Positions 1 to 53,021 of a stretch of DNA of 64,000 nt are shown here, one piece after another. Made by a program: the position numbers and the translations under genes. Below the pieces are notes generated by a model that was not told the DNA's origin, did no database searches, and worked only from the letters and a program-made list of their open reading frames with translations. Origin of the DNA: an uncultured virus (IMG/VR IMGVR_UViG_2861330777_000001) (Duplodnaviria > Heunggongvirae > Uroviricota > Caudoviricetes); the IMG/VR virus record IMGVR_UViG_2861330777_000001. The stretch is one strand, 5' to 3'. Position 1 is the first letter of the stretch. The number at the start of each line of letters is the position of its first letter.

Positions 1-2622
1 CTACGCTAGTAACGATTCAACTTCCGTCCAATGGCGCCCATACATTCGCGAGTGGCGTTTCGTTAAGAACGAGTTGTCATACTGCGGTAACCTTTCGGAC
101 GGTGGCGCGAGGCCCTTCAGCAAGAAAGCGTTCTGCCTTCGCCCACCAAATCGCGCTAGGAATATCGCATGATAGGCTTCCGTTTGCAGCGCCAGCTCAA
201 CGTCAAAGTTCGGCTTTAGCTGCGCTTCTAACTTTTCGAACACCTTCCGATTGTCGTTCGCGAAAAGGAACCAATTGATCCCGCCGCTAATTAAATCGTT
301 GTCTAAGTCGTATTTCAGCAAGTCGAAATGGTGGAACGCGAATATGCCCGCTAATCGCCACTTCGGTCCCTCCAGTACAATCCGTTGCATAAGCGCTTTT
401 AGTCCTGGCGTTAAGTATTGGTGAGGCTCGTTGAACACTATAAACGCGCTGCCTTCCGCTGGATCCATTAGAAGCTTCGTCATAAATATTTTAAGCGTCA
501 CCCAATGTATTAACGTTTTCGCCGACAATGCGCCGAGCTTACGATTCGGCACGCGAATAATGACGACCTTCCCTTCACGTATCCACTTCTCGAAATCAAT
601 CTCCGGCTTCGGTGCCTGCGCAAATATGCGGAATAAAGTATCGTCGCCGAGCATTTCGTCAAGCCGATTTAGGATTGCGCTGGCCTTACCGTCCAGAGTC
701 TTTTGACCATCGCGCAACACCTTCGGATTTCCTTTCGCATCTAGTCCGTATTCTGAAAGGTATTTTTCGAGGAAATGCGCCGTACGTACGTGACCGCCTT
801 TATGCAACTCCTTCGCCCTTTCTGCGCGAAACTCTTCGTCTTCCAACAGCCTCTTTATTTCGAACAAACTCCCGCCACTGGCTTTCGCGAACTCCCGCAG
901 AATAGAACGCGACTGCCCCATCGATTCCATATCGCCGAAGAAGTCGATTAGCTCCTGCGCAAAACGGTTTGTGCCGTTCGTGCCGAGCCGTTCGATAATT
1001 TCCGTCAAGTCCATCGGTACAGGGTAATCCGTGTCGCTTAGATCGAGGTCGATAATCTTATCCGCCGGCAAAGAGTCGCGCACGCCGTCCGCAAAGCCGC
1101 GCTCGCCATCTTCCATGATAGCGTCTATTACGAACGTAGCGATTCCGTGATTCAAGCACGCTTCGATCACAAGGTTTTTCGCCAATGTGTCTTTACCCAT
1201 ACGCGGAGCCCCAACGAGTCCGTAACTACGGAAAGTTTCGTCGAGGTTACTTGTCGGAATACATATCGGATGCTGGACGCCCTTCACTTCGCTATGCCCG
1301 ACTAAAACCCCGTTGCTTTTCGATTTGACCGCCTTAGGCTCTTCCTCCACCGAACGTATATTATTACTTCCGATATTCAACGTAATTCCACCTAACAGCA
1401 CGCCAGCCTTCGTCTCTTTATGTACAAGTACCGAAGGCACATCCGACTCAGCTTTTCGATTTACCGCGAGCTCTTCTTCGTATTTCTGCTGCACGGAAGA
1501 TGTCGGCAACATTAGCGCTACTTTCGCCAGTTCGTCGCAAGATAGTAACGAAACATCTCCGTCAGCTTTCGTACGATTAGATAGATGCAGCGTATTTAAT
1601 TCCGACACTACTTCCGCCTTGCGTGCTTTGATTCGAATCTTAGCCGGCCTTAATTCGTTATCGCCAGCTATTTCGCTGAACGCACTGCTTAACGTATTGG
1701 CGACGAGATTGCCGCGAAGCTTTTCGTCTGTAACCGTAGCCACGCGAATATGTGTCTTCCATACCGGCTGGTTGATTTTATTGGCGCTACGGTCGGAGAG
1801 GCGCGTTATATTCAGCTCGTCAAGCAACGCTGATTTTCGGTCGATGGCGGGCTTCTTTTCGTACACCTTTTCCGACTTAAAGAACGTATTGCTGACGGCA
1901 TTCAGCGTGTCGTTAAGCACGTCGTAAATCTCATTAAAGAACGTAATCAAGCCTCCTTTTAGCGCATTTCCTGCCTTGTCAGCCGTTAGTTTTGCGCGCT
2001 GAGGAACTTTACCCTTCGCAAGCTTTTCGTGCGCCCATGAGGCATTCTTCGCCCATTTAGCGCGGCTATAAACCTCGGAAATAACGGACAGCCTTGCGAA
2101 ATCTCCATCGTCGGATATATCGTCTAGTGCCGTAAGTATCGAAGCGATCGGCGAAGTCTGCTCCGTTTGATTCGTATGCATCGAAAATATGTCGTGACGG
2201 GCTAGGCGGAGTTCTTGCAAGGTCAGCTCGCCAGTTTGCGGGATTTCAAGCGCTTCGACTCCGACTTCCTCAACGGTCACACGCATATAGTTTTCGAGGA
2301 TTTCGCGAAACTTCTTCGCCCATAGCTCCGACGTACTTACGTAGAACTCGACCGTCTTTTTGCCGTCTGCACGGCGGAATACTACGTCGAACCAAATGGC
2401 GTCCTTTTCGCGATAAATAAAACGGAAACCACCTTCCGATTTGCTGAGTCGCGCCGGCAAACCTTCGTAAATTTCGTACATCTTATGAAGCACGCGCCAC
2501 ATTTTCGCATTGCCGTTGTTCGTAACCGAGATGTGTGGCGTAATGCGAAACGTCTTCATTTCGTTTTTCTGCAGTGCGAAGTAATCCGAAAGCTTAATTG
2601 CGTGCAACTTCCGATTGAACAT
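1..2622 (-). CDS. VirD4/TraG/HerA-like P-loop ATPase (about 873 aa)
   Basis: Walker A-like GAPRMGKD and Walker B-like FIVFNEPHQ; start moved to ATG 2622 behind GTAGGAGGT; TAG stop at 1-3. Confidence 0.7.
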   Translation of the reverse strand: MFNRKLHAIKLSDYFALQKNEMKTFRITPHISVTNNGNAKMWRVLHKMYEIYEGLPARLSKSEGGFRFIYREKDAIWFDVVFRRADGKKTVEFYVSTSELWAKKFREILENYMRVTVEEVGVEALEIPQTGELTLQELRLARHDIFSMHTNQTEQTSPIASILTALDDISDDGDFARLSVISEVYSRAKWAKNASWAHEKLAKGKVPQRAKLTADKAGNALKGGLITFFNEIYDVLNDTLNAVSNTFFKSEKVYEKKPAIDRKSALLDELNITRLSDRSANKINQPVWKTHIRVATVTDEKLRGNLVANTLSSAFSEIAGDNELRPAKIRIKARKAEVVSELNTLHLSNRTKADGDVSLLSCDELAKVALMLPTSSVQQKYEEELAVNRKAESDVPSVLVHKETKAGVLLGGITLNIGSNNIRSVEEEPKAVKSKSNGVLVGHSEVKGVQHPICIPTSNLDETFRSYGLVGAPRMGKDTLAKNLVIEACLNHGIATFVIDAIMEDGERGFADGVRDSLPADKIIDLDLSDTDYPVPMDLTEIIERLGTNGTNRFAQELIDFFGDMESMGQSRSILREFAKASGGSLFEIKRLLEDEEFRAERAKELHKGGHVRTAHFLEKYLSEYGLDAKGNPKVLRDGQKTLDGKASAILNRLDEMLGDDTLFRIFAQAPKPEIDFEKWIREGKVVIIRVPNRKLGALSAKTLIHWVTLKIFMTKLLMDPAEGSAFIVFNEPHQYLTPGLKALMQRIVLEGPKWRLAGIFAFHHFDLLKYDLDNDLISGGINWFLFANDNRKVFEKLEAQLKPNFDVELALQTEAYHAIFLARFGGRRQNAFLLKGLAPPSERLPQYDNSFLTKRHSRMYGRHWTEVESLLA

Positions 2623-2633
2623 ACGCCCACCTC

Positions 2634-3284
2634 CTACGAATTTGCGTTGATAATCCACACGATAACGCCCGTCATGCAGACGCTCCACCAGCCGAGCCAC
2701 TTGCCCGCCCTGCCTGTAACCATAATCAAAACGCCCACTGCAATCGTAAGAAATCCACCTATTTCCGGCATGGTTGCGGTTATTGCGTTTAGACCATCGT
2801 GAAGCATATCGACGAATGGATTAACGATAACTTCGACTTGCTTTCCGATGACCCAGTCCGCGAAATTGTTATACTGTTCGAGGAACCAATTTCCGCCACC
2901 TCCGCTGACCGCCGACACTTGTTCCGCAACAGGAGACGGATCAATCCACGCGCCAGCTCCGTCTTTCATAGCGTAGTGTAGATGCGGACCCGTCGAGTGG
3001 CCCGTATTTCCGCTCAAACCGATTACGTCGCCGGCGTGAAGCTTATCGCCAACCTTTACGCTAACATTGCTCATATGGCCGTAAATCGAAGTAGTCCCGT
3101 CCTGGTTAAGAATCTCAACGCCTTTGCCGAGGTTTTTTCCGCCGAAGTTCATAACCCTTTCGACAGTCCCGTCAGTAATCGTCCGTAGCGTGGTACCTTC
3201 GGGCATGGCGAAATCAATGCCGCGATGCACATGTCCGCGCACTTCCGATAATTCTCCGTAAGGACTTGTAATACGAAATTTCAT
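2634..3284 (-). CDS. M23 metallopeptidase with C-terminal membrane segments
   Basis: HRGID, YGHM and STGPHLH motifs; hydrophobic C-terminus. Confidence 0.9.
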   Translation of the reverse strand: MKFRITSPYGELSEVRGHVHRGIDFAMPEGTTLRTITDGTVERVMNFGGKNLGKGVEILNQDGTTSIYGHMSNVSVKVGDKLHAGDVIGLSGNTGHSTGPHLHYAMKDGAGAWIDPSPVAEQVSAVSGGGGNWFLEQYNNFADWVIGKQVEVIVNPFVDMLHDGLNAITATMPEIGGFLTIAVGVLIMVTGRAGKWLGWWSVCMTGVIVWIINANS

Positions 3285-3299
3285 ACTGCCGCCCTCCTT

Positions 3300-3677
3300 T
3301 CACAACGTTTTCAAAAAGTCGCGCACATCTATCGCATGTCTTGCAAGCGTATAGCCCGCCGAGCCACCGATGATTAATTCGAGCGCCTTGCCGCGGTGCC
3401 CGAACATCCACGAAACACCTGCGAATATGAATACGCCAACCACAATCCAATCAACAATATTCATGACCGCTGACCATACGTTGCCGAAGGTTGCGTCAGC
3501 CGATGCCGCTAGCGCTTGCTTTGGCGCCATTGCAAGGAATAGCCCTCCTCCAATCGCGACGAATTTTAGCACGGATAAGTCCGCCTTTTCTAGCCTTGCC
3601 GTAATGCTTGCCGTTGATTTCTTCGTGAGCTTCCCGCGCATAAAGTCGTTGAAATCCAACGTTTGTAATCTCGCCAT
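3300..3677 (-). CDS. TrbC/VirB2 pilin-like membrane protein
   Basis: Signal-like segment ending ALAA followed by two hydrophobic helices (IVDWIVVGVFIFAGVSWMFG; ALELIIGG). Confidence 0.55.
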   Translation of the reverse strand: MARLQTLDFNDFMRGKLTKKSTASITARLEKADLSVLKFVAIGGGLFLAMAPKQALAASADATFGNVWSAVMNIVDWIVVGVFIFAGVSWMFGHRGKALELIIGGSAGYTLARHAIDVRDFLKTL

Positions 3678-3695
3678 TTTGCCCGCCCCTTTTCC

Positions 3696-3725
3696 GTATA
3701 CTTTCGTTATAGCGTGCGCATACTA
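3696..3725 (+). promoter_or_regulatory. SigG-type (forespore) promoter
   Basis: GTATA-N18-CATACTA matches the B. subtilis SigG consensus. Confidence 0.65.
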
Positions 3726-3757
3726 ATCGTAAATCCCGCGAAAGGAGTTATCCGCCC

Positions 3758-3826
3758 ATGTTTATTTTGCTTGGCGTCACTGCTGGTGCGCTTATAGGTA
3801 CGTTAGTTAACGTACTTGTCGGCTAA
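3758..3826 (+). CDS. 22-aa hydrophobic micropeptide MFILLGVTAGALIGTLVNVLVG
   Basis: AAAGGAG RBS at 3741-3747, ATG to TAA, downstream of the SigG-type promoter; absent from ORF track. Confidence 0.65.
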   Translation: MFILLGVTAGALIGTLVNVLVG

Positions 3827-3839
3827 AAAATTCGCCCCA

Positions 3840-4013
3840 TTAATCGAGGGCGTCCGTATCCATATCGCGCTGAATCAGCATTTTTATATATGCGGAAAAG
3901 TTCGTAAATTGTAGCGAGTATTCGTAAATCTTCCGCTGGTGCGGATCGTTATAATTAAATGCAACTGGACGTCGTCGAATATCCTTCGGCGTCTTCGGTT
4001 TGTTCTCGACCAT
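3840..4013 (-). CDS. Small ribbon-helix-helix-like regulator (57 aa)
   Basis: PVAFN...NFSAYIKMLIQRDM pattern; RBS GAAAGGTGG before ATG 4013. Confidence 0.55.
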   Translation of the reverse strand: MVENKPKTPKDIRRRPVAFNYNDPHQRKIYEYSLQFTNFSAYIKMLIQRDMDTDALD

Positions 4014-4257
4014 GTGACCGCCACCTTTCGTAGTTGCGCACTGGTTAATAACCATCGCCTAATTTAATACTACGGTGGGCCTCGACAAAACTTGCATGTA
4101 CTACGGAAATTTATTCGAAAAAGTTGCGGAAATAGGTCGTTCGGGGTTGTACGGAAGGGTATACGTAAGTGGCGTAGGAAGCTTATCGCGCTTGCGCTTA
4201 CGAGTAAGCATATGCGGAGGTTTGCGGATTATTGCGTGTCCTGGCGAAAAAAGGCAC

Positions 4258-4306
4258 AAAAAAAAGTGCCCCAACCGTACGGAAGATGTCCGCATAGGTC
4301 GAGGCT
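4258..4306 (-). terminator. Intrinsic terminator after the 4305-4682 gene
   Basis: GC-rich hairpin followed by T9 on the minus strand. Confidence 0.65.
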
Positions 4307-4682
4307 AGTAATTAATCAAACGTTTATCGCTTCCGTAAATATAGATGAAATATGAATCCTTTTCGAGCGTGAGGTCGCCCTTGCGTTCTTTTAGTGCCGC
4401 TTTAACGGAGGCTTCTAAATCTTTCGCAGTTTCCGCGACATACTGCTTACTGCTCGGAACTCTGAGCCTTACGATAATAGCATCGTTCGAATAGTCTACT
4501 TCGATAGAAACAACGCTGCCGCTCGCTACTTCTTCGGCGAGTATTTCGCCATCATGCGCCGAGCGTTCTTCGTCTGTCAATCCGGATGCAGACATCGGCG
4601 CTGTTTTATCATCGCTCCATACCGAAACTACACCGATAATTACTAGCATCGCAATTACCATAAACGGGACCTTTATTTTCAT
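4305..4682 (-). CDS. Membrane-anchored hypothetical protein (moron-like)
   Basis: N-terminal hydrophobic helix; own SigA-like promoter TTGCGT-N17-TAAAAT at 4743-4715 and own terminator. Confidence 0.7.
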   Translation of the reverse strand: MKIKVPFMVIAMLVIIGVVSVWSDDKTAPMSASGLTDEERSAHDGEILAEEVASGSVVSIEVDYSNDAIIVRLRVPSSKQYVAETAKDLEASVKAALKERKGDLTLEKDSYFIYIYGSDKRLINY

Positions 4683-4784
4683 GGCGAAATCACTCCGTTC
4701 AAAATTGTTACCTAATTTTACCGCATATACCATATGTACGCAAGCGCCTGCGTATTAGTACCGCAAGCCCTCCGGCGACTTTCG

Positions 4785-5006
4785 TTATTTACTCCGAGCC
4801 TTTCGGGTCACATCGTTATTCTTCCAATATGCCCACAGTGACGCCCCGCCGAGGAACGCCAAGTTAATGAACGTCGCCACGCCTTCTTCGTCGACAGGTA
4901 TCGTCTGCACGCCCGCCATGTTTAGCGCAGTATTAATGAGAGCCAGCGCCAACAGTACGAACCTCGTCACCGTGCCTGCCGAAATATTTCGCGTTCTTTC
5001 CGCCAT
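4785..5006 (-). CDS. Holin, SPP1 family
   Basis: AGTVTRFVLLALALIN...WAYWKNNDVT signature; adjacent to endolysin. Confidence 0.9.
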   Translation of the reverse strand: MAERTRNISAGTVTRFVLLALALINTALNMAGVQTIPVDEEGVATFINLAFLGGASLWAYWKNNDVTRKARSK

Positions 5007-5007
5007 C

Positions 5008-5724
5008 TTACTTCGCCCCCTTCGTAGCCATTCGATGTAGCATCGCCCATACTTGTTGACGCGTCACGTTTTCGAACGGGTCACTGCCGTCAGAAATGCC
5101 CTGCGCAATAACCCATTCTTGCGCCTCTCTCGCGTAAACACTTGCGATTTGCGGTTTTGCCTGCGTCTTTACTTGCGCAACTACCTGCGCTGCGACAACT
5201 ACTCCCTTCGCTTTCTTACCGCTGATTGATTCCGCGATTGCCTCGCAGATTGCCTCGAAATTATTCTTGTACGCAGTGACATCCGCCTTACTATCTACGA
5301 AGCACACCTCGATAAGTATGGCGGGCTTATTCGTCCGTTTAAGGAAGCCGAGGTCGGTCCGCTTCTTTGCTCCTCGATCTTTTAGCCCGCCAGCCTTCGC
5401 AATAGCCGCAGAAACTTTCGCCGCTAACGCTTTGGTCCCGTCGGAATAATAAAGGACTTCGACGCCCCTCGCTGCGTCCGTAGCGCTTGCCGCGTTAAAG
5501 TGAACGGAGACGTCCAGGTCGCGCGCCTGCTTGTTGTGAAACGCCACGATTCCGTTTATATTTGCGGTCTGTGTGCGGGAAGTATTATCATGGTATTCGG
5601 TGGCGCCAAGCAATTCGGCAACTTTCGAAGCAACCCGCCGCGCCTCGACCACCTCGTCAATTATTCCACAGGCACCCCGAACGTAAAGTGAGTGTCCACT
5701 CGAAATTACAACTTCTACAATCAT
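5008..5724 (-). CDS. Endolysin, N-acetylmuramoyl-L-alanine amidase (Amidase_3) with SLH-like C-terminus
   Basis: SSGH, SVHFNA and ILIEVCFVD motifs; VTRQQVWAML tail. Confidence 0.93.
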   Translation of the reverse strand: MIVEVVISSGHSLYVRGACGIIDEVVEARRVASKVAELLGATEYHDNTSRTQTANINGIVAFHNKQARDLDVSVHFNAASATDAARGVEVLYYSDGTKALAAKVSAAIAKAGGLKDRGAKKRTDLGFLKRTNKPAILIEVCFVDSKADVTAYKNNFEAICEAIAESISGKKAKGVVVAAQVVAQVKTQAKPQIASVYAREAQEWVIAQGISDGSDPFENVTRQQVWAMLHRMATKGAK

Positions 5725-5820
5725 TTCGCATTCCCCTTTCGGATAATTATGTGCTATAATACCGTTAAGGTCGGCGCCGTGATTTTCGTTGTCTAGGCGT
5801 AAGCACGGCTTGCCGACTGC

Positions 5821-6075
5821 CTATTTGAAAACCGCAATCGCCACCGTCACAATTAGTCCAACCACCGTCAGCATTACGCCCCAAATCCACTTCGAATTCG
5901 CCTTCATGTCACGTATATCTTCGCGGTTATCTAGTCCGATTTGCTTCGCCTCGTCTGCGATAGTTTTCGCCTGTTCCGCCGTGTGCTTAACTTCATTCAG
6001 ATAGTCGACTTTCGTATCAATACGCACGAGCCATTCGCGTAATTCTGCGATGTCGCGCGAGATTGGTTCCGCCAT
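5821..6075 (-). CDS. XhlA-like lysis protein
   Basis: Coiled coil plus C-terminal TM (KWIWGVMLTVVGLIV); position in lysis cassette; start moved to ATG 6075. Confidence 0.8.
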   Translation of the reverse strand: MAEPISRDIAELREWLVRIDTKVDYLNEVKHTAEQAKTIADEAKQIGLDNREDIRDMKANSKWIWGVMLTVVGLIVTVAIAVFK

Positions 6076-6150
6076 GTGCTTCGCCCTCCTTTCGGTGAAA
6101 TCGAAAAAGGCGCCCAAGGTGGACGCTAGTTGTGTCGTTTAATCTTCCTG

Positions 6151-6261
6151 TTATGCATTATCCGCAGCTAATTTAGCGTTTACTTGCTCTAAATAGCGAT
6201 CCGGTACCTCACTAATATCACTTAGTCCGAGCTTTACTTTCGTATACCATAAAGTAACCAT
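6151..6261 (-). CDS. 36-aa XkdX/CD1375-like tail-associated protein
   Basis: MVTLWYTKVKLGLSDISEVPDRYLEQVNAKLAADNA; directly follows the 6265 gene; absent from ORF track. Confidence 0.7.
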   Translation of the reverse strand: MVTLWYTKVKLGLSDISEVPDRYLEQVNAKLAADNA

Positions 6262-6264
6262 GAA

Positions 6265-6636
6265 TTATTCCCCTTTCAAAGTAGCAATTTCAGACTTCAG
6301 TATTTCGATTTCCGTTAATGCTAATGCTAATGTTTCCGCAATTGCTGTAGCATCCTCTAATGTATAAGCCGCTACTATTGCCACTTCTTCTACATCCTCT
6401 TTCAACGTTACATTTTCTTGCAGTAACCGTTTAGCGTTAGGATTATTCCGAATTGCAGAATGTGAAAGCGAGTTCTTATATTCATCAACTAAATTAATGA
6501 ATATCGTATTCGCAAATTCGTCACCAACTTCGAAGATTGTAGATATAGCGTAGTCGTATCCTCCTTTTAAAACAGGTACCGTACTATGAATCTCAACAAC
6601 TTGCTTAGAGTGTATTTCGTATTCCAGATAAACCAT
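6265..6636 (-). CDS. XkdW-like tail fibre-associated protein
   Basis: Position between fibre genes and XkdX-like gene; C-terminal coiled coil. Confidence 0.55.
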   Translation of the reverse strand: MVYLEYEIHSKQVVEIHSTVPVLKGGYDYAISTIFEVGDEFANTIFINLVDEYKNSLSHSAIRNNPNAKRLLQENVTLKEDVEEVAIVAAYTLEDATAIAETLALALTEIEILKSEIATLKGE

Positions 6637-11840: not shown

Positions 11841-12502
11841 CGCGGAATCACCAACTTTTGGCCCGCCTTGATGCTGTTAGGATTCTTACCAATTACTTTC
11901 ACGTTGGCGTTATATATACGACGCCACTGATCGCCATCACCGTAGATTTCGGGTCGTTTGGCGATTTTCCACAAGCTATCGTTCGCCTTAACAGTATACG
12001 AGGTTACTTTCGCAGGCTTTGCGGCAGACGGACGACTTGCGGATGTAGTTGGCTTTTTCGCAGGCTTTGACGTGTCAACCTTCGTCACTTTTAGCTCGCG
12101 CCACTCTTTTAGTACTAGCGTAAAATAAACGTCACCAGGTGAACCACCTCTTTCCGCTTCAACATCGAACTCACGAATCGTTGCTGAAATATTGACACCG
12201 CCTTCGCCCGTAATAATAAGCTGAATCGGCTTACGCCCATTTCGCCAGTTCTCGATATAATTTATAAAACGTTGCGGCGTAGTGAACGTCGAATAACTGC
12301 AATAAGTCGGATTATAATCGCGAGGCCAAAAAGTTGAAATAGTAAACTCACGCAAGCCGCGTCTACCTATCGTCGTTATTTCTCCAAGACCTTCTACCTC
12401 CGTGTCTGTAAATGAGAACGGAGAAACGTACGAATTAGATTCGGGATTGACCGGCAGGCGCAGCCTGGTTTTTCCGTTAACTAGCCAAAATTCTACGGTC
12501 AT
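11837..12502 (-). CDS. XkdP-like LysM tail tube initiator
   Basis: LPVNPE N-terminus; YTVKANDSLWKIA...GQKLVIP LysM domain. Confidence 0.9.
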   Translation of the reverse strand: MTVEFWLVNGKTRLRLPVNPESNSYVSPFSFTDTEVEGLGEITTIGRRGLREFTISTFWPRDYNPTYCSYSTFTTPQRFINYIENWRNGRKPIQLIITGEGGVNISATIREFDVEAERGGSPGDVYFTLVLKEWRELKVTKVDTSKPAKKPTTSASRPSAAKPAKVTSYTVKANDSLWKIAKRPEIYGDGDQWRRIYNANVKVIGKNPNSIKAGQKLVIPR

Positions 12503-14139
12503 GCGCCCGCACCTCCTGCACGTTCTACTTTTTTCACGAATAGCTCGAATAGTTTCTCCGCATCTTTTTCAGTCGAGCCCGAACCGTTTAGAGTTACGTT
12601 AAACTGGTACGTATTACCTCCGCTTTTTCCGGCACGGTAGTCCGCAGCTTCACCTCGAGGAAGTACCGCCTCGTCCTTGTGTAGTCGATATAACCCATCG
12701 GAATGGACTCGGTTTGCCCCACCATTACGTGATCCTTTTGATTTCGGTGCGGAGTTCGAATTATCCTCGGAAGTCTTATTGTTTTTTAGCCACCGCCTTA
12801 AGAAAAATCCGCCGACGGTTTCTGTTGCCTTTTTCTTCGCCCATCTTGCGCTGTCATCCGGGCTCCCTAGCGCTGACATGATAAACGAGTCCTTTACGGC
12901 GGCATTAAATCCGTCCATGACCCCTTGCCCGATTGCCCCTCCGATTTTAACTGCGACCGGCAGAATAGCAGGCATAGAAGCGTCAATTGCGGCCGCCAAC
13001 GTTTGGACTAAGACTTCGCTCGCTGCTTGTATTTTCGCTGAACCTTCCGAATCAAGCCATTTAATGAATCGCGCGTAAATATCCGATATGATAAAGTCCA
13101 CTTTTCCGTAAACGGTTGTCTGCTCCTTAAATTCTTCCGAGGCGGTGAGTGCGGTAAACCATTCGTAGATTCGCAATACCCCGTTCGTAAGACCGGTTAG
13201 AATGGCCTTAATCCAACGGGCGCCTACGTTAGCAAAACGGTCAAGCTCGCCGTTTTCCAGTTTGCCGAGTATGTTATTTAAAAAGTCTGTGACAACCGCA
13301 AGTGAGGGCTCCCCCATCTTTCTTAATTCTTTTGCAAGAGACTCTTTAACACGGTTGAATACCCCGATTGTCGTTTCGCCCGCTTTGTCTATCATCTTCG
13401 TAGTCATCCCAATTTTATTGAAATACTTATCGAGTTCGACAAGCTGCTGTTCAAGCGGGAGGTCTTTAATCGCATTCATAACCTTTAGAGGAAATTCGAA
13501 CCTTCTAACCATACTGATTGCACTGCCCGAAAATATCTCACGCAGGGCAAAAACTGCTCCTTCTACGCCTTGATAAGGATCTATGGCTGCCATACGTTCA
13601 GCAAGCGACCAAGCTTTTTCCAACTGTCTAATATCCTTCGTCATTGTAATGAATGATTTAGAATTCCCGTACATATCTTGTGAGTTCATAATTGGTGAAT
13701 CTATTGCGTATGAATCAACCATATCCGTATATTGCTTGGCTAGTTTACTGTCGTTAAAAAGTGCGCCAATCATTACTTCGGAATTTTCGAATTTAGCAGC
13801 TGCACCCACGGTAGCCTCGAATACCTTGGCTGCTCCTCTCGCCGCTTCATATGCCAAATAAACACCGCCAATAGCCGATGCTAACCCTCCAAGACTCGTT
13901 ATCGCAGAGCCAATACTTCTTCCCGCGTTGCCTAGACCTCTACTAAACGAGTCGGTAGCACGTGACGCGCTTCCTGCTTGTGACGCATATTGTCCTAGCG
14001 AGTTACGTAAGCGCCCTTGGCTATCACGCCAAAGACCTGCTTGGCGGTTAGCTCGCTCCATCGCGCGAGTTGCGCGATCCAACCCTCTATTAAAATTCGC
14101 AGAATCGAGCCTTAAGATAGCACGCAAATCGAATGCGAT
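12499..14139 (-). CDS. Tape measure protein (about 546 aa), probable ATC start
   Basis: Helical Ala/Gly-rich sequence upstream of XkdP-like gene; AAAGGAGG lies 8 nt before ATC GCA TTC GAT. Confidence 0.8.
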   Translation of the reverse strand: MAFDLRAILRLDSANFNRGLDRATRAMERANRQAGLWRDSQGRLRNSLGQYASQAGSASRATDSFSRGLGNAGRSIGSAITSLGGLASAIGGVYLAYEAARGAAKVFEATVGAAAKFENSEVMIGALFNDSKLAKQYTDMVDSYAIDSPIMNSQDMYGNSKSFITMTKDIRQLEKAWSLAERMAAIDPYQGVEGAVFALREIFSGSAISMVRRFEFPLKVMNAIKDLPLEQQLVELDKYFNKIGMTTKMIDKAGETTIGVFNRVKESLAKELRKMGEPSLAVVTDFLNNILGKLENGELDRFANVGARWIKAILTGLTNGVLRIYEWFTALTASEEFKEQTTVYGKVDFIISDIYARFIKWLDSEGSAKIQAASEVLVQTLAAAIDASMPAILPVAVKIGGAIGQGVMDGFNAAVKDSFIMSALGSPDDSARWAKKKATETVGGFFLRRWLKNNKTSEDNSNSAPKSKGSRNGGANRVHSDGLYRLHKDEAVLPRGEAADYRAGKSGGNTYQFNVTLNGSGSTEKDAEKLFELFVKKVERAGGAGA

Positions 14140-14173
14140 ATAGTCGTCCTCCTTTCTGCAAAACAAAAAGGCG

Positions 14174-15514
14174 TCACAATCCCGACACCTCTTGTTCTAA
14201 AATATTCTCAATGTTATCAAACTCGTAGTATGGTATCCTTACGAGTTTAATACCTTTTCTTAAACAATACGTCGTTTTTATTTCATCTAACACTTTTCTC
14301 TTTCGGAAAGCTTCGTGCCCTCCAAAGAATTTAATCGGTTTAAAATGCTGTTCACCGTCGAACTCAATCAAACATTTAATATTGCTGTCACCATTTAACA
14401 CACAGAAGTCAAAGGGGAGGGGTTTGATATGTCTACAATCGTCAAACTTATATTGCTTGTGAAACTTTATATCTTTAGATTTTAGATAATCTTCAACCCT
14501 ACTTTCTCCGTGAGTAGTATTAGCCCCGCAAGATGGACATTTAATGCCCCGCAATAAGGAAGTAGCACTCCTAGAGAACTCTGTTCCACAATCAGTACAC
14601 TTAGCTGTGATTAGTTTAAACGCGCCTACATACTCGCTTACTATCGCTATGCTACCAGAGTACTTTTCCTCAATCTGTTCGACAAAAATACCATGTGGTT
14701 TTGTTTGTGATTCTACACGTTTCTTAAATGAGCAGGCGGTACAAGGTACTTCTCTAGTATTGAAGTCATAGGGCAACTTATCAAACCTTTCTCCGCAAAC
14801 TACGTGCAGATATGTTACGTGTTCGTTTGAGTTATTATAATTAGATAAAACGAGATATTCTCCATTAGTATTTTCTACAACCTCACGTTTATATGACCCC
14901 GAATCGACTACGCCTTGCGCACATTTAGGACAAGCGTATTTCGCGTTTATTATCGTATATGGTTTAGTAAAGAAATTAAAGCCGTGCTTTTGGCATCTAA
15001 ATTCGGTATTCGTTAAACTATCTACATACTTAGTTACAACTAAAATATTTCCGTTAAATTTCTCCTTAATTTCTAGTGCGAAATCCTCGCGAGATTTTCT
15101 CCTCTTAATGCCCCCTGCTATTAACGCACATTTTGGACAACGTTTACCGTTTACAAAGTTACTGGGTCTAACTTTATATTCGTGACCGCAAACTATGTGT
15201 TTTATGTCAATTGACTTGAACATCCCTTCGTACTGTGAACGAAGTTCATACTCACCTTTCGATAAATCGGCGAAAGATTTTAAAAATACAACTTCGTGGT
15301 TTTTAACGCGAGTCTTTGCGGCGTTGTAACATTCAGGGCATTTCTGTCCTCTACTTTTAATCTTATCGGGAGTAGCCTCGTAGATATTACCGCAAGAATG
15401 CTTAATTCTTACTTTTGTTTTAGCGCTGACATACTCAGTTAGTACTTCATAGCCTTCGCCAAGTATTTCCGATACCTCTTTTATAAATTCCTCGTTTGTT
15501 TTACGTACCGCCAC
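14174..15514 (-). CDS. Free-standing homing-type endonuclease: zinc-ribbon repeats plus Vsr/PD-(D/E)XK-like domain
   Basis: Repeated HxxCG...CPxC units; C-terminal PFDF...IEFDGEQHF...VRIPY; AT-rich. Confidence 0.75.
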   Translation of the reverse strand: MAVRKTNEEFIKEVSEILGEGYEVLTEYVSAKTKVRIKHSCGNIYEATPDKIKSRGQKCPECYNAAKTRVKNHEVVFLKSFADLSKGEYELRSQYEGMFKSIDIKHIVCGHEYKVRPSNFVNGKRCPKCALIAGGIKRRKSREDFALEIKEKFNGNILVVTKYVDSLTNTEFRCQKHGFNFFTKPYTIINAKYACPKCAQGVVDSGSYKREVVENTNGEYLVLSNYNNSNEHVTYLHVVCGERFDKLPYDFNTREVPCTACSFKKRVESQTKPHGIFVEQIEEKYSGSIAIVSEYVGAFKLITAKCTDCGTEFSRSATSLLRGIKCPSCGANTTHGESRVEDYLKSKDIKFHKQYKFDDCRHIKPLPFDFCVLNGDSNIKCLIEFDGEQHFKPIKFFGGHEAFRKRKVLDEIKTTYCLRKGIKLVRIPYYEFDNIENILEQEVSGL

Positions 15515-21693: not shown

Positions 21694-22278
21694 TTAAGGA
21701 AGCCAGTAGATATCCTCTTTTATGATCTTTGCCGGATTTCCAGCGACAACAGAATTAGCTGGTACGTCTTTAGTTACAACGCTCCCGGCCGCAACCACTG
21801 CTCCACTTCCAATACTAACTCCTTTTAAAATTATTGAACGACACCCTATCCACACCTTATCTCCTATATGGACTGGTTTATAAATGTATTCTTGAGTGTT
21901 TAATTTGTGATAATCTCTATCCAATATCACTACATCCCATGATATATTACAGTAATCTCCTATTGTAATTTCTTTGCCACAATGTATTTCTGTTCTATCG
22001 CCAATGGATGTATTATTCCCTATTTTCAAGTGTGACTTAAAATCTGTTCCCCAAACACTTACTTTACAATCTTTATACATTAATACTTTATCACCTATGT
22101 CGATATAGCCATTCATTTTGTTTATGTTCAACTTACCGGAAGCCATAAAAAACTTTCCGCACTTGTCGAACGATCGTTTCACAAGGAATCCTCTAAATAC
22201 GTTTTTTGATATTCCAACCAATTCCCTTAATGACTTAGATTTAATTAATTTTGATACTTTATTCACTTCGATTCCCAT
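21694..22278 (-). CDS. Hexapeptide-repeat O-acetyltransferase (maltose/galactoside acetyltransferase-like)
   Basis: IGDKVWIG...[18 protein letters not shown]...GNPAKII; candidate own promoter TAGACT-N17-TATTCT upstream. Confidence 0.9.
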
Positions 22279-22406
22279 ATATTTACCCCGTTTCTATTAT
22301 TTACTAATAGAATAAGGGATATTAAATATATAGTCTAGTATTATTGATTCATTTGCTCATAATAAGACAACAGTATTTGACTTTTAATTATTTCTATGCA
22401 ATTGAG

Positions 22407-24926
22407 CTACATTCCCTCTAATAATACTTTTGATAATACATTAAAAATATCTTGATGCCCTTCCGGTTTAGGGTGAACCTCGTCAACCAAGTACCCTGCG
22501 GCATTAGCTACGCTATACGTACTTCCCCAACGCTTCTTGATATCAACAAGTGCACAATTATAGTCCTTAGCAAGCTGGAGAACAATATTATAATAGTCGT
22601 TCATAGGGATAGGATGGTTTGCGTTAAAAATACCGCCTGTTGTTGTAATCAATACATCTCCGTATTGTTTAGCTTTTGTGATTACTGCTTGCCAGTCTGC
22701 TTTGAAGGCGTCAAGGCTTGTTTGCGTGTTATAATCGTTAGACAAGAATGAGATAATCGTTAGCTTCGGAGTCCAATATCCAATGCATGCCTCTGAATTA
22801 AAAGCTTTTGCAACAGATCCTACTTTTAGTCCGCTTACTCCGAAGTTATTGATTCGAACGCCTTTACTTCCTTTTAACTCATAAGCACCTAACAAACTGA
22901 CTTTGCTGGCTGATTTAGTCGTAAGCACAACTGTATGTGTACCATCTACTAATCCAGTTACTCTATGCTCTATAACCACACCGTCCGAACTTCTCGATGT
23001 AGAAAGTGTTTGAGCTGTACCGCCATCGACTGCTATATCGACAGACCCACTAGACCAGCTTCCTTCCAACAAGACAACAACGCCAGTACCTTTGAAAGTA
23101 AAGGAAGCTGTAGAGCCCGCGGCTACTGCAATCTTCGTACCACTACTTCCGTATGTCAAACCGTTTCCTCCGAAGGTTTGCCATGTACCAGTATACGTCC
23201 ATCTCCCAACAGCGGCTGTATATGGGTATTGGTTTGCTATCATCCCTTCGCCTACGTCCCCGTATTTAGTGGTAAACTGGTTACGCAAAAGGGTTGCATA
23301 CCCTCTTTTGTAGTTATCGATAGTAACAGCGCCTCCAGCTTGACCTTCAGTATTGCTATCACCTTCAAGACATACGTTGATAATCTCTTGTACTCCGGAG
23401 TCTAATCTAGCTTTTGCGAGTCTCCATTTCCTAAGACCATTATCGATATTATAGATATAGTTGTACGGTTTGTAGGCTATTTCGTCCGTTACGACTCTAG
23501 CCTGTTTGATTAATTCCAATTGGGTTGTAACACTCATCCCATCTGGATATTTCCCGTATATCCCCATATCTATCCTTCTGTGTCCTGCTCCTTTAGCCGC
23601 GGAAGCTGGCGCTAGGTTAAAATCTCTTTCTCCGGTTAGAACTCCAGTAGCGTCCTTGAAAACAGTGTCGTAGGCATTGTCTGCGCCTGCTACTTGTGCG
23701 AGCACTTTATAGTCCACTCCGACAGGTAAGTCAGCCCTAGATAAGTTGTAGTCTCTAAAGAAATTGTTACGAATAGCCAACTCATTTATATCTGTAACGC
23801 CTAAGTCGAGTATCTGTATGCCTGAACTTGTTTGATTTGAAAAAAGAATATTGTTTTCAATAGTTAAGTTTTTTATCTTAACTGAGACAAGAACGCCAGT
23901 GAAGCTAACATTAAAAGCCACGTTATTACGTACAACGATATCACTGATTTTATACGGCAACCCCGTTTCATTATTATTTGCAACTATGTTATACCCTCTA
24001 AGTGAATCATAAACGATATTGTTTCTAAATATAATACCTTCTAGTGTTCCACCAGACTCTACACCAGTTGACAACCCAACGCCTTCTGGAACATTTGTAA
24101 CCGTATTATTGTATACTTCTATATTGTATTGGTGTCTAGAAAATGCATCCACATAGATTCCAATCCGAACAGGGTTATCCACATAGCATCCGTGAATTAT
24201 CCCATTTCTTGTTCCGTCTTTTAAATCAATTCCTTCTTTATAACAATCGATAACTCGACAATCTTTTATTTCAAAGTTATCCACATTAACTAATGAAAGC
24301 CCTTCTTGACTTAAATTTTTACAAACACGTTTCAGCTCACAATTGTCTATTAAGATATTGTCGGCATTTATAAAATAAATACCTGATCCCCCTGCATCTG
24401 TGACCGAACAGTTACGAATAATTACATTCGAGGAACCTTTTCCATCTGTCCAATCTTGCCCAAAACCCATTGCATAAGAGTTGATGAGTTTTAAACCTTC
24501 AAATATCCAGTTGTTGCTATTCTCAATATTCACTAGCCCTTGCCACGAATTACTCCACCATGTTATTCCGGTTCCATCAATAATTGGAGAGTGTCCCTTA
24601 TAGTTTACTAATTTTATTGGTCTGTCTGGTTTACCTGATTTTCGAATAAGCACTCGTTCTTTATACGTACCATTCATTACGTAAATCGTATCTCCTGCTT
24701 CGGCTGTGTCCACCGCATATTGGATAGTTTTCCAAGGGCTATTTAGTGTCCCTTTGTTAAGATCGTCACCATCTACAGAACTAACATACTTAATAGAAGC
24801 TATAGATGCAACTTCCTGCGCCGTTTCGGCCAACTGTCTATTAGTTTCTTCAACCTGCGCCCTGGCTACCGCATCAACTCCGCTATCGCCTCCACCAACT
24901 TGATTACCATATTTATATCCGCTCAT
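22407..24926 (-). CDS. Right-handed beta-helix protein fused to an SGNH/GDSL esterase
   Basis: YVSS...GDD...GT...PWKTIQYA...GDTIYV...GTYKE; N/I-rich repeats; GDSNTEG, NDY and DEVHP blocks. Confidence 0.85.
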   Translation of the reverse strand: MSGYKYGNQVGGGDSGVDAVARAQVEETNRQLAETAQEVASIASIKYVSSVDGDDLNKGTLNSPWKTIQYAVDTAEAGDTIYVMNGTYKERVLIRKSGKPDRPIKLVNYKGHSPIIDGTGITWWSNSWQGLVNIENSNNWIFEGLKLINSYAMGFGQDWTDGKGSSNVIIRNCSVTDAGGSGIYFINADNILIDNCELKRVCKNLSQEGLSLVNVDNFEIKDCRVIDCYKEGIDLKDGTRNGIIHGCYVDNPVRIGIYVDAFSRHQYNIEVYNNTVTNVPEGVGLSTGVESGGTLEGIIFRNNIVYDSLRGYNIVANNNETGLPYKISDIVVRNNVAFNVSFTGVLVSVKIKNLTIENNILFSNQTSSGIQILDLGVTDINELAIRNNFFRDYNLSRADLPVGVDYKVLAQVAGADNAYDTVFKDATGVLTGERDFNLAPASAAKGAGHRRIDMGIYGKYPDGMSVTTQLELIKQARVVTDEIAYKPYNYIYNIDNGLRKWRLAKARLDSGVQEIINVCLEGDSNTEGQAGGAVTIDNYKRGYATLLRNQFTTKYGDVGEGMIANQYPYTAAVGRWTYTGTWQTFGGNGLTYGSSGTKIAVAAGSTASFTFKGTGVVVLLEGSWSSGSVDIAVDGGTAQTLSTSRSSDGVVIEHRVTGLVDGTHTVVLTTKSASKVSLLGAYELKGSKGVRINNFGVSGLKVGSVAKAFNSEACIGYWTPKLTIISFLSNDYNTQTSLDAFKADWQAVITKAKQYGDVLITTTGGIFNANHPIPMNDYYNIVLQLAKDYNCALVDIKKRWGSTYSVANAAGYLVDEVHPKPEGHQDIFNVLSKVLLEGM

Positions 24927-34049: not shown

Positions 34050-34281
34050 CCGCTACCTCCTTGATATGCTTATACCCGACCGTAATTTGACGATTGTAGA
34101 AAATCGCGTAGAAGTAAATTTCGAATCCCACGTGCGTAATCGGCTTATCGTACCCATTAGCGCAAACCTGCTTCGGCTCTTTCGCAAAGCCCCCGGAAAA
34201 TGAGAAACCGCCGAACGACGGAAACTTTTCGTAATTTAAAATGACGCCACTTTTCGGATAAATAAAATCTTCGTCCATCAT
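34036..34281 (-). CDS. Hypothetical protein
   Basis: RBS GAGGAGG; TAATG coupling. Confidence 0.65.
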   Translation of the reverse strand: MMDEDFIYPKSGVILNYEKFPSFGGFSFSGGFAKEPKQVCANGYDKPITHVGFEIYFYAIFYNRQITVGYKHIKEVADDGL

Positions 34282-34673
34282 TACGCCTCCTCTTTCGTAT
34301 TTGTAACCGCATACCCTTCGCCATGCCCCGCCCAATAGTAGAAAATTTCCGCTATCTTTTCTATCGCATTATCTACGTAAATATCAATCGCCTGCTGCGA
34401 AACTCCCATCGACGCCCCTGCGTCCTTTTGCGTCAAATCCTCCTCGTAAACCAGACGCAACGCCTGACGCTGCCTAACCGTCAGGCCCGCCCGTTCGATT
34501 GCCGCCGCCAGGTCGGTTAGTATATCTACCGCTGAATAATCGCCTTGATATTGCCGGCCGAGCAGCGCGTGATAATCGCCGAGCAGGAGCCGAACGCCCT
34601 CCGGATTGTCCAAGGCGTAACGCTCCGATAAACGTCGATCGCCTGCGTGTATGTCGTATTTAACTGCGCCCAT
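34281..34673 (-). CDS. Sigma-70 region 4-type HTH protein, candidate late regulator
   Basis: LTVRQRQALRLVYEEDLTQKDAGASMGVSQQAI. Confidence 0.8.
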   Translation of the reverse strand: MGAVKYDIHAGDRRLSERYALDNPEGVRLLLGDYHALLGRQYQGDYSAVDILTDLAAAIERAGLTVRQRQALRLVYEEDLTQKDAGASMGVSQQAIDIYVDNAIEKIAEIFYYWAGHGEGYAVTNTKEEA

Positions 34674-52907: not shown

Positions 52908-53021
52908 TTAGCCTCCAACCTTTTCAGCTGCTGTTGAGATCCCACCATCACCGTTGCTATGCGCTATTGGATTTATAACTATTGTCGATACGAGCAAAAC
53001 ACCTAATAAAATTTTCTTCAA
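52908..53021 (-). CDS. aimP: Arbitrium pre-peptide MKKILLGVLLVSTIVINPIAHSNGDGGISTAAEKVGG
   Basis: Signal-peptide-like N-terminus, C-terminal hexapeptide ending GG, overlaps the aimR 3' end, RBS AAAGGGG; absent from ORF track. Confidence 0.85.
   Translation of the reverse strand: MKKILLGVLLVSTIVINPIAHSNGDGGISTAAEKVGG

Follow-up and report, generated by a model that had tools for sequence, protein, structure and literature searches.

The described system closest to the gene module at the left end of the DNA analysed here is found in the strictly lytic siphovirus SPP1. Our sequence is a stretch of 64,000 nucleotides from an uncultured virus (IMG/VR record IMGVR_UViG_2861330777_000001; contig C8:86219-150218), hereafter called the window, to which all positions refer unless otherwise stated. 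In SPP1 the module comprises genes 31, 31.1, 31.2 and 32. According to the text of Godinho et al. (2018, PMC6316719) on these genes, they form an early unit transcribed from PE5, a transcription that they share with the lysis genes 25 and 26. An inversion that disrupts open reading frame (ORF) 31.2 and leaves gene 32 promoterless is viable in that account, and genes 31.2 and 32 are described as non-essential. The same text gives HHpred matches of gp32 to TrwB, VirB4 and FtsK, proposes that gp31.1 and/or gp31.2 together with gp32 could "build a trans-membrane translocon", and lists the gap between genes 31 and 31.1 as unexplained non-coding DNA longer than 45 bp (PMC6316719). Our literature searches found no functional study of the module.

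By homology, the window module is a member, carrying an M23 peptidase fusion, of this published but uncharacterised family. Its four proteins match the products of SPP1 genes 31, 31.1, 31.2 and 32 one to one and in the same order, and in both phages the module is placed after the lysis genes. The ATPase is 42.8% identical to the product of gene 32 across 96% of the query, the pilin-like protein is 46% identical to gp31.1 (E 5e-32), the C-terminal part of the M23 protein matches gp31.2 (E 0.001) and fits well into a family alignment with the short gp31.2-type forms, and the small upstream protein matches the N-terminal part of gp31 (E 4e-6 over 39 aa). As in the window, the SPP1 ATPase lacks a membrane segment and its two small partners have predicted transmembrane helices. 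The module proteins fall into PHROG families 5156, 5422, 7767 and 8966, which are annotated as function unknown or 'metallo-endopeptidase'; the ATPase matches phrog_5156 at E 1.7e-209, the M23 protein is phrog_7767, and the small upstream protein matches both phrog_8966 and phrog_4223. An initial annotation, made from the window sequence alone, had proposed four co-oriented genes beyond the lysis cassette that encode a minimal membrane-spanning translocation device. All four ORFs are present, on the minus strand like all genes of the region, and the core of that proposal, the membrane translocon, is not original, having been in print for the SPP1 homologs since 2018. We lean slightly towards reading these genes as the prophage's version of an accessory module conserved among phages and plasmid-prophages of endospore-forming Firmicutes, one that would act as a membrane translocon with the ATPase as its motor.

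The arrangement of the module is strongly conserved. Loci were collected from species-representative genomes (24), IMG/VR (50) and named phages (6); they include duplicates of SPP1, GBK2, PBC1 and one Niallia prophage and yield 65 distinct ATPase sequences. Synteny was counted in those 72 loci in which the ATPase is complete and the upstream sequence amounts to at least 1.5 kb. The pilin-like gene is present in 70 of these, and a gp31.2-type gene lies directly upstream of the ATPase gene in 69/72 by profile hidden Markov model (HMM), the exceptions being SP-10, D6E and one Robertmurraya locus. All three genes, pilin-like, two-helix and ATPase, occur together in 69/72, and the M23 domain is found in 23/72. 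Blind clustering of ORFs in 74 neighbourhoods recovered a gp31-like family upstream (49/74), a mostly divergent helix-turn-helix (HTH) family (35/74), two endolysin families upstream of the module (29/74 and 16/74) and a ParA-like gene beside it, either upstream (18/74) or downstream (13/74). No VirB6-like polytopic protein, VirB4, VirB8, second ATPase or relaxase was co-conserved in these 74 neighbourhoods, in agreement with the remark in the initial annotation that no relaxase, VirB4 or VirB6 was visible.

The ATPase is laid out as an N-terminal DUF8128-like domain of ~440 aa followed by a C-terminal ATPase of the FtsK-HerA / type IV coupling protein (T4CP) type, and contains no membrane segment at a Kyte-Doolittle cutoff of >=1.6. 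Searches of the protein against Pfam and NCBIfam matched no family, with neither AAA_10 nor CagE_TrbE_VirB among the Pfam matches, and 43 aligned family members, the window's included, yielded no recurrent or relevant Pfam family at E<=0.1 and 12 unrelated single hits. A profile of 43 relatives retrieves 2149 representative clusters at E<=1e-3, and five of 31 distant full-length relatives pass the curated threshold of TrwB_AAD_bind. When compared with hhalign, the family aligns both to coupling proteins (TrwB_AAD_bind matches from Bacilli genomes; 98.3% probability, E 1.2e-14, 343 columns) and to Gram-positive VirB4 (AAA_10; 97.2% probability, E 3.3e-11, 310 columns), each comparison covering the C-terminal half only and not the N-terminal half. 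Against the PDB, a 73-sequence profile matches DptH (1.4e-6), HerA (2.9e-5) and TdpA (8e-5), and further down entry 8j4u, 'Nucleoside triphosphate hydrolase' (2.5e-4), DotL (0.003), TrwB (0.02) and a VirB4-like protein (0.42). Language-model neighbours of the ATPase carry TrwB_AAD_bind, DUF87 and TraG-D_C. For the N-terminal 440 residues, DUF8128, a name that our literature search did not find, is carried by 28/30 of the named neighbours, and a Saccharimonadota cluster with both DUF8128 and TraG-D_C is also among the ATPase neighbours. On these comparisons the 873-aa protein appears to belong to the FtsK-HerA / T4CP superfamily. The label 'VirD4/HerA-like' given to it earlier seems fair, with the protein a demonstrable member of neither family and not a VirB4, and the description as coupling-protein-like has support from the hhalign and HerA-type PDB matches for the ATPase domain only.

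The nucleotide-binding motifs of this domain are unusual. The Walker A motif reads GAPRMGKD (residues 471-478) and the Walker B motif FIVFNEP (residues 727-733), and close relatives share the pattern GxxxxGKD with hhhhNE while distant ones have GK[T/S] with DE. Across the 73 aligned sequences the two positions covary without exception: T or S occurs with D in 64, D occurs with N in nine, and mixed pairs occur in none, with the catalytic glutamate invariant throughout. To us this covarying charge swap, a new observation, suggests that a magnesium ligand has been relocated and not that the site is dead.

The pilin-like protein belongs to a family in which, in an alignment of 43 members, a variable N-terminal leader is followed by ~70 conserved residues with two hydrophobic helices. 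A cleavage-like site, P-x-x-A-x-A-A, is present in 40/43 members, an inter-helix motif, G-x-x-W-M-x-G-H-R, in 37/43, and the C-terminus is conserved as H-A-x-D-I-R-D-F-L-K. Thirty of the 43 members match Pfam TrbC/VirB2 (PF04956) at E<=0.05, the best at 1.2e-5, and the window protein also matches the F-pilin TraA (E 0.038). When the family profile was searched against 177,635 distinct PDB chains, the sole matches at E<=10 were three pilin chains of type IV secretion systems (T4SSs), namely A. tumefaciens VirB2 twice (0.074 and 0.099) and pKM101 TraM (1.5), with the stretch G-I-S-W-M-F-G in common. Among 116 database homologs, 25 carry a precomputed PF04956 assignment and three have the JGI name VirB2 pilin. 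The VirB2-like two-helix membrane protein of the initial annotation is thus backed by family and PDB matches, at levels below curated thresholds, and the protein is probably a divergent VirB2-type protein. A study of Patescibacteria reports T4SS classes of Gram-positive bacteria as being without VirB2 homologues (PMC12102498), and because these classes are said to lack them the VirB2-likeness of the gp31.1 family is notable.

Two annotation matters concern the same family. NCBI names most of the pilin-like homologs 'glycosyltransferase', which is implausible for a two-helix membrane protein of 112-125 aa and looks like a propagated misannotation. In addition, the C. sporogenes plasmid NZ_CP022406.1 encodes an ATPase homolog (25% identity, E 4e-29) directly preceded by a protein that PGAP names as TrbC/VirB2 family. 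The gene of the latter overlaps the start of the ATPase homolog, giving a two-gene version of the module in Clostridia, and the plasmid annotation, itself incomplete, shows no gp31.2-type or other T4SS gene within 9 kb.

The third protein, of 216 aa, is a fusion of an M23 domain (~1-125) to a gp31.2-type C-terminal domain with two hydrophobic helices (~171-214). Pfam Peptidase_M23 matches at E 1.9e-26 with 92.5 bits against a cutoff of 28.7, and the protein contains the motifs H20xxxD24, H70 and H101xH103. The HxxxD motif, the central histidine and the HxH motif are retained in 20/20 M23 fusions, and the earlier description as a membrane-tethered M23 peptidase has support. Short gp31.2-type forms measure ~80-120 aa and M23 fusions ~220-250 aa, and both share an M-K-F-x-L start, an amphipathic stretch, the motif L-P-[DE]-I-x-G-Y, the two helices and a lysine-containing loop between them, a positive loop which suggests that the N-terminus faces outward. 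As the likeness of the two-helix protein to VirB3 lies only in gene position and topology, with no Pfam or PDB match, we rejected an identity with VirB3. The M23 fusion occurs in 21/65 distinct modules and is absent from 44, among them the window's nearest relatives, which are of the Niallia type (73% identity). On a FastTree phylogeny of the 65 ATPases its distribution needs 11 gains or losses, at least 9 of which are forced by well-supported branches. This repeated gain and loss marks the M23 domain as an exchangeable add-on and leaves the pilin-like protein, the two-helix protein and the ATPase as the core.

From these parts a working model can be drawn. A hexamer of the ATPase would dock on the two-helix membrane protein, in the manner of a coupling protein whose anchor and motor are separate proteins; that the two-helix protein is the membrane anchor of the ATPase is an idea that rests only on its position and on the ATPase being without an anchor of its own. 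The ATPase would then either pull pilin-like subunits from the membrane into a short conduit or drive a macromolecule across the cytoplasmic membrane, the cargo by family kinship being DNA, and the M23 domain, where present, would make a local opening in the thick wall. If SPP1 is a guide, the module would be made early and be dispensable for plaques, which would assign it a fitness function rather than a part in the virion or in lysis; it appears to be extra to both, as the initial annotation had it for virion assembly. A micro-ORF and a promoter-like site described below hint that the locus has a second state in cells that sporulate.

Several results weigh against the model. Among PDB entries, those that the ATPase matches best are HerA relatives of the defence type and not coupling proteins, and the protein also matches the PADLOC profile mad8 (E 5.5e-10). 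Its GKD/NE Walker pair is non-canonical and ATPase activity is assumed. The window's pilin-like protein reaches 18.9 bits with PF04956, below the curated cutoff of 27.9; the PDB E-values of its family are weak (0.07-1.5), and an hhalign comparison of the family with the TrbC/VirB2-named Clostridium protein was not significant (1.6% probability). The two-helix protein showed no similarity to any Pfam or PDB entry, VirB3, PrgI and TraL included. The N-terminal M23 domain, here counted as 170 aa, has no signal peptide and no obvious route to the wall. Finally, the host genome was found to contain no AAA_10 (VirB4) or TrwB-type gene at the thresholds used, and consequently the module cannot borrow a resident T4SS there.

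The small upstream protein is the least informative member of the set. Its motif consists of a strand-like K-P-V-x-F-N followed by N-F-S-x-Y-V-K-x-L-I-x-x-D. The initial annotation had taken it for a ribbon-helix-helix (RHH) regulator. None of 30 members of its family matches an RHH family of Pfam, no RHH chain is among the 13 PDB hits of the family profile at E<=10, and the label amounts to a pattern guess. A word-index search for homologs of the small protein returned only three relatives, all without a functional name.

Genes within the module are packed closely, with intergenic spacings of 11-15 nt except for a gap of 160 nt downstream of the small gene; the M23 and ATPase genes are 11 nt apart here, and in relatives the two-helix and ATPase genes often overlap. 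An alternative GTG start of the ATPase at 2700 has no ribosome-binding site (RBS). Since the ATPase stop codon occupies bases 1-3 of the window, the gene is complete, and the suggestion that the operon might continue to the left of base 1 did not hold. Upstream, the initially proposed terminator between the lysis cassette and the module was found again as a hairpin followed by two U-runs, with a folding energy of -23.1 kcal/mol (z -4.69; equally stable shuffles 0/200), and by its position and structure it closes the transcription unit of the lysis cassette. A second hairpin at the end of the small gene may be a leaky terminator and is weak evidence (-10.1 kcal/mol, z -1.77, equally stable shuffles 13/200). 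A scan of positions 1-6500 against Rfam returned nothing at E<=1.

The 160-nt gap contains a micro-ORF that converges on the small upstream gene and diverges from the pilin-like gene. Its product, MFILLGVTAGALIGTLVNVLVG, is a single uncharged, glycine-rich hydrophobic helix. An HMM built from ten such peptides was used to search 7630 ORFs of 15-45 codons from six frames of the 74 loci, and hits at E<=0.01 were obtained in 52 loci, that is, in 52 of the 71 loci having a pilin-like gene. All hits are located at most 400 nt upstream of the pilin-like gene and on the other strand from the module, a finding that is circular for the ten seeds, which were taken from that position, and not for the remaining hits. 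Hits include SPP1 (a 17-codon version in the gap between genes 31 and 31.1, likewise on the opposite strand), GBK2 and 0105phi7-2. A looser scan gave candidates in six of the 19 remaining loci and none in the PBC1 group. Among 45 distinct micro-ORFs, 43 have an RBS-like site, 36 encode 21-22 aa, and 0.8% of the residues are charged. From the first to the third codon position, nucleotide diversity is 0.334, 0.268 and 0.544, as expected if the micro-ORF is translated.

Upstream of the micro-ORF lies a promoter-like site of the forespore type; the sigmaG/sigmaF consensus, which we take to be GHATR-N17-18-CATNNTA, served as reference. Strict two-box matches occur four times on both strands of the 64-kb window; one of them is this site, and the other three are inside genes. 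In the 45 distinct upstream regions CATACTA is present exactly in 25 and with at most one mismatch in 35, at 20-40 nt before the ATG, compared with a background of 0.054 per kb. A G[TA]ATA-type box stands 17-18 nt upstream of it in most cases outside the B. cereus group, while the versions of that group and of SPP1 keep the -10 box (CATACTA in SPP1) without a -35 box at the right spacing. The strict two-box motif is found in 11/45 regions against 0.2% of random 100-nt windows and shuffles, an enrichment of about 100-fold, and a relaxed motif in 16/45 against 3-4.5% in controls. As an in-genome control, we inspected host genes with SASP-family matches; SASP genes are under sigmaG. Three of six have a similar promoter architecture (GAATG-18-CATTCTA, GTATA-18-CAAACTA and TAATA-17-CATAATA). 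SigmaF, and less well sigmaE, would be indistinguishable from sigmaG by such a motif, and recognition of the sigmaE/sigmaK type is possible. We also considered whether the motif is a phage late promoter read by the sigma-like gene at 34281-34715, a candidate rejected in view of the other three matches being intragenic and none preceding a late operon. An adjacent SigG-type promoter had been part of the initial annotation. The site does exist, and it faces away from the pilin-like, M23 and ATPase genes, towards the micro-ORF and, beyond it, the small upstream gene.

ATPase homologs were found by single-query tblastn (E<=1e-5) in 106 of 50,697 phage records, assigned to Bacillus (93), Geobacillus (5), Lysinibacillus (2), the deep-sea thermophilic phage D6E (2) and, with one record each, Alicyclobacillus, Brevibacillus, Terrisporobacter and Microcystis. 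The phages concerned are of the SPP1, SPO1, SP-10, PBC1, Basilisk, Slash and TP-84 types. The same search returned 50 of 72,556 plasmid records, from Clostridium (26, at 22-25% identity), Bacillus (21), Alicyclobacillus (1), Laceyella (1) and Thermoactinomyces (1); 42 of the 50 plasmids are typed as non-mobilizable, and relatives occur on plasmid-prophages with ParA/RepA. All hosts with a homolog except Microcystis form endospores, so that 105/106 phage records, 50/50 plasmid records and 155/156 records overall come from endospore formers, while phages and plasmids of Staphylococcus, Listeria and lactic acid bacteria gave no homolog in these searches at that threshold. This restriction fits a link to sporulation, but phage lineage and the limits of a single-query search, which overlooks distant relatives, could account for it just as well; the 2149 representative clusters of the profile search carry no taxonomy, and a phylum-sample search, with ATPase matches in 17/401 genomes, is uninformative on taxa. 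The sole hit outside endospore formers is Microcystis phage MaeS (MT362618.1, an 80-kb record). In size and extent its match is like those of the B. megaterium phages Slash and Stills and of the B. cereus phage Basilisk, and its host assignment may deserve a check.

The module is carried by a prophage of ~67.5 kb that is bounded by attachment (att) sites and has a single tyrosine integrase, located at the far end from the module. The boundary is a direct repeat of 226 bp, as counted in the left copy; that copy lies 2.0-2.3 kb to the left of window base 1 and the right copy ~0.9-1.2 kb beyond the window end. Integration has split a DUF3900/DUF3898 gene. A full-length version is kept at attL by means of a phage-borne, diverged 3' end (about two-thirds identical by eye), and the original 3' fragment lies beyond the integrase at attR, just to the right of the window. 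Reading leftwards from the window, an opposite-strand Xre-type HTH gene, a gene for a 269-aa HTH_36 protein and a YolD-like gene are followed by the complete DUF3900/DUF3898 gene, HemAT, TatA and MetH. No VirB6, VirB8 or relaxase is found among the genes between the module and attL. The module is inside the att sites, ~2 kb from attL. The HTH_36 protein, ~300-1100 nt left of base 1 on the minus strand, has sub-threshold matches to Bac_RepA_C (E 0.0024) and Replic_Relax (E 0.006) and may be a replication initiator; the gene is not conserved beside the module in relatives. Within the window, contractile tail genes (sheath, tube, baseplate J and sheath initiator) confirm the earlier call of a myophage, and DNA polymerase A, ribonucleotide reductase, ThyX and an AimR arbitrium receptor are also encoded.

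Table 1. Features of the module, its flank and other loci of interest, by position in the window.
Feature	Position	Strand	Remarks
ATPase gene	1-2622	-	873 aa; ATG with RBS taggaggtg
M23 protein gene	2634-3284	-	216 aa
Pilin-like protein gene	3300-3677	-	125 aa
Forespore-type promoter-like site	3696-3725	+	GTATA-N18-CATACTA, 32 nt before micro-ORF ATG
Weak sigmaA-like site	3733-3706	-	TTTACG-N16-TATAAC, by eye, for the pilin-like operon; face-to-face overlap with the promoter-like site
Micro-ORF	3758-3826	+	22 codons, MFILLGVTAGALIGTLVNVLVG; RBS AAAGGAG; unannotated
Weak hairpin and U-run	3833-3852	-	overlaps stop codon of small upstream gene
Small upstream protein gene	3840-4013	-	57 aa; ATG chosen by RBS gaaaggtgg
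Intrinsic terminator	4247-4305	-	hairpin ~4268-4305, then U8 and U6 runs to ~4247
Membrane ORF	4305-4733	-	142 aa; between holin and terminator; unmentioned in the initial annotation
SPP1-type holin	4785-5006	-	Pfam
Amidase_3 endolysin	5008-5724	-	Pfam
555-aa ORF	12499-14166		no Pfam match
Zinc-ribbon protein	14174-15514	-	446 aa
Esterase-domain protein and hexapeptide acetyltransferase	21694-24926	-	esterase-domain protein of 839 aa
Sigma-70 region-4-only protein	34281-34715	-	
AimR-type arbitrium receptor	52957-54174	-	Pfam AimR, E 1.5e-31

Some other genes of the prophage deserve mention. The 142-aa product of the membrane ORF has one N-terminal membrane helix and a sole, weak match to phrog_21529 (E 5e-4), and stands outside the module. 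The 446-aa protein contains treble-clef and zinc-ribbon motifs in repeats, and its gene stands as an insertion between that of the tail assembly chaperone and the 555-aa ORF. Beside the head genes, the 839-aa protein combines a beta-helix, a CE2-type N-terminal domain and a GDSL esterase domain and is accompanied by a hexapeptide acetyltransferase, an unusual place for a depolymerase/esterase pair. The sigma-70 region-4-only protein is a possible phage sigma or anti-sigma-like factor, although it is probably not what reads the sigmaG-like motif of the module. The AimR-type arbitrium receptor occurs here in a contractile-tailed prophage.

Other explanations of the module can be set beside the translocon. 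The most credible of them, though still improbable, is that it excludes competitors or defends against phages and plasmids, with a membrane-anchored HerA-type complex blocking or expelling incoming DNA; the module would then be a moron at the end of the prophage, and lytic phages would carry it to exclude rivals. Such a role would be in keeping with DptH (1.4e-6), TdpA (8e-5) and 8j4u (2.5e-4) being among the top PDB profile matches, the first two of them defence ATPases, and with the mad8 match (E 5.5e-10), as well as with a position next to YolD and HTH genes, flanked by the lysis cassette and attL, a terminator of its own upstream, a patchy occurrence across phage lineages and the non-essentiality described for the module in the SPP1 text (PMC6316719). 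The defence matches are, however, limited to the shared P-loop domain, PADLOC matches none of the other module proteins, and no nuclease, Sir2, methylase or other effector is co-conserved in the 74 neighbourhoods; the invariant partners are instead the pilin-like and two-helix proteins, which are not known from HerA defence systems. Early expression in a lytic phage fits exclusion without proving it. A role in persistence through sporulation, in which the module would help to bring the phage genome into the forespore or retain it there, or would control lytic genes in that compartment, seems doubtful. Here the micro-ORF would be made in the forespore under sigmaG or sigmaF, and the ATPase, pilin-like and M23 proteins would act at the septal or engulfing membranes. 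The conserved sigmaG-type site with an architecture like that of host SASP genes, the origin of 105/106 phage and 50/50 plasmid records in endospore formers, the lack of hits at E<=1e-5 in phages and plasmids of non-sporulating Bacilli and the ParA-like neighbours (18/74 upstream, 13/74 downstream) all speak for it. As judged from the promoter-like site and the confinement of homologs to elements of endospore formers, a sporulation link is better founded than expected. On the other hand, the promoter faces away from the three larger genes, the strict two-box motif is present in only 11/45 upstream regions, the host restriction may simply mirror phage lineage and host range, and the SPP1 module is described as early and vegetative (PMC6316719).

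Two further explanations are much less probable. A supplementary role in lysis, with the membrane-tethered M23 protein as a second lysin and the other proteins regulating release, is very unlikely. The module does directly follow the holin and endolysin genes in the window, endolysin families are upstream in 29/74 and 16/74 neighbourhoods, and the SPP1 module is, per the text on SPP1, co-transcribed with lysis genes 25 and 26 from PE5 (PMC6316719). Yet M23 is absent from 44/65 distinct modules and has undergone at least 9 gains or losses, the constant core is an ATPase with two membrane proteins, and here a strong terminator stands between the lysis cassette and the module. An 870-aa ATPase has no known precedent in lysis. 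Least probable of all is that the genes are a remnant of the conjugation system of a separate plasmid or integrative and conjugative element, or a functional mini-conjugation system for the transfer of DNA from cell to cell. The T4CP-like ATPase with its pilin-like partner, the HTH_36 protein just downstream with its sub-threshold Bac_RepA_C and Replic_Relax matches, and the relatives on plasmid-prophages with ParA/RepA could be taken that way. Against it, the module is enclosed by the att repeat together with a single integrase, keeps the same position after the lysis genes in strictly lytic phages, and is not accompanied by a co-conserved relaxase, VirB4, VirB6 or VirB8 in the 74 neighbourhoods; the host has no AAA_10 or TrwB-type genes and 42/50 homolog plasmids are typed non-mobilizable. 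An origin in an adjacent element, which the initial annotation had named as the finding that would overturn its proposal, is largely refuted by the att sites and by the synteny in lytic phages, the genes being within the repeat and co-conserved. The combination that it proposed, of a VirB2-like protein, a wall hydrolase and a coupling-type ATPase, has support. Its 'conjugation-like' is overstated because most of the defining T4SS parts are missing, and its suggestion of DNA movement from cell to cell or into the forespore finds no support; strictly lytic phages carry the module too, and in one of them, SPP1, it is expressed early and can be dispensed with. The translocon stands as the best available reading, at roughly an even chance, followed by exclusion or defence and then by a sporulation-linked role.

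The translocon and sporulation readings can also be combined, speculatively, in a two-state device coupled to sporulation, in which a T4SS-derived motor and a forespore peptide would load or protect phage genomes in spores; we regard this as doubtful. In its first state, in the vegetative or mother cell, the ATPase on its two-helix anchor would move phage DNA or protein across the membrane with the VirB2-like subunit and the wall-cutting M23 domain. In the second, in the forespore, a 22-residue membrane peptide, driven by sigmaG or sigmaF from the overlapping promoter on the opposite strand, would receive or gate the transfer or silence the module. If true, the two-state device would have no precedent as a phage machinery dedicated to spore entrapment, and Gram-positive phages would gain their first VirB2-type system. 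A sporulation link, if true, would address how phages of spore formers enter and survive in spores; exclusion, if true, would mean a membrane-level defence built from T4SS parts; and if neither holds, this is an ordinary accessory module. In any case the module is among the most widespread unexplained gene sets of Bacillus-group phages, with occurrences on plasmid-prophages and Clostridium plasmids as well, and SPP1, a model phage with easy genetics, carries it. The VirB2-likeness of the gp31.1 family and the covarying Walker swap are worth following up, as is, above all, the conserved micro-ORF with its sporulation-type promoter-like site, a new observation.

Compared with its closest relative, the SPP1 module, the window copy differs in having an M23 endopeptidase domain inserted into the gp31.2-type protein, in having its own upstream terminator, and in belonging to a temperate myovirus rather than a lytic siphovirus. 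For the micro-ORF, the nearest parallel is with TxpA/RatA and BsrG/SR4, type I toxin-antitoxin loci of Bacillus prophages with a small hydrophobic toxin. These likewise have a gene for a tiny hydrophobic peptide in a convergent or antisense arrangement. In contrast, the micro-ORF product has no charged tail, the micro-ORFs measure 17-24 codons, a sporulation-type promoter-like site is present, and no antitoxin RNA family was found by Rfam in positions 1-6500. The HerA-type defence ATPases DptH, TdpA and mad8 of MADS are the best profile matches to the window ATPase domain. The module differs from their systems in being without a nuclease or modification partner, in having membrane-bound partners and in being carried by lytic phages.

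Similar to a T4SS, the module has an ATPase domain homologous to coupling proteins and VirB4, a protein with the build of a pilin, a wall hydrolase and tight operon packing. It differs in being without VirB4, VirB6, VirB8, VirB3 and relaxase, in an ATPase that has the 440-aa DUF8128-like domain in place of an N-terminal membrane anchor, and in a hydrolase that is an M23 endopeptidase fused to a membrane protein, where a T4SS has one of the VirB1 type. Reduced sets of this kind have been described in cells. According to the texts on them, the T4SS of Patescibacteria (PMC12102498) and the archaeal Ced DNA-import system (bioRxiv 10.1101/2024.09.27.615246), both of monoderm cells, are relaxase-less and combine VirB2-like proteins with a VirB4/HerA-type ATPase. 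As in those systems, which these texts present as thought to be co-opted for roles other than classical conjugation, the window module is a reduced set. The two described systems are cellular and, per the same texts, keep VirB4 and usually polytopic proteins of the VirB6/CedA type, whereas the module described here is phage-borne and smaller, and its ATPase is nearer to coupling proteins.

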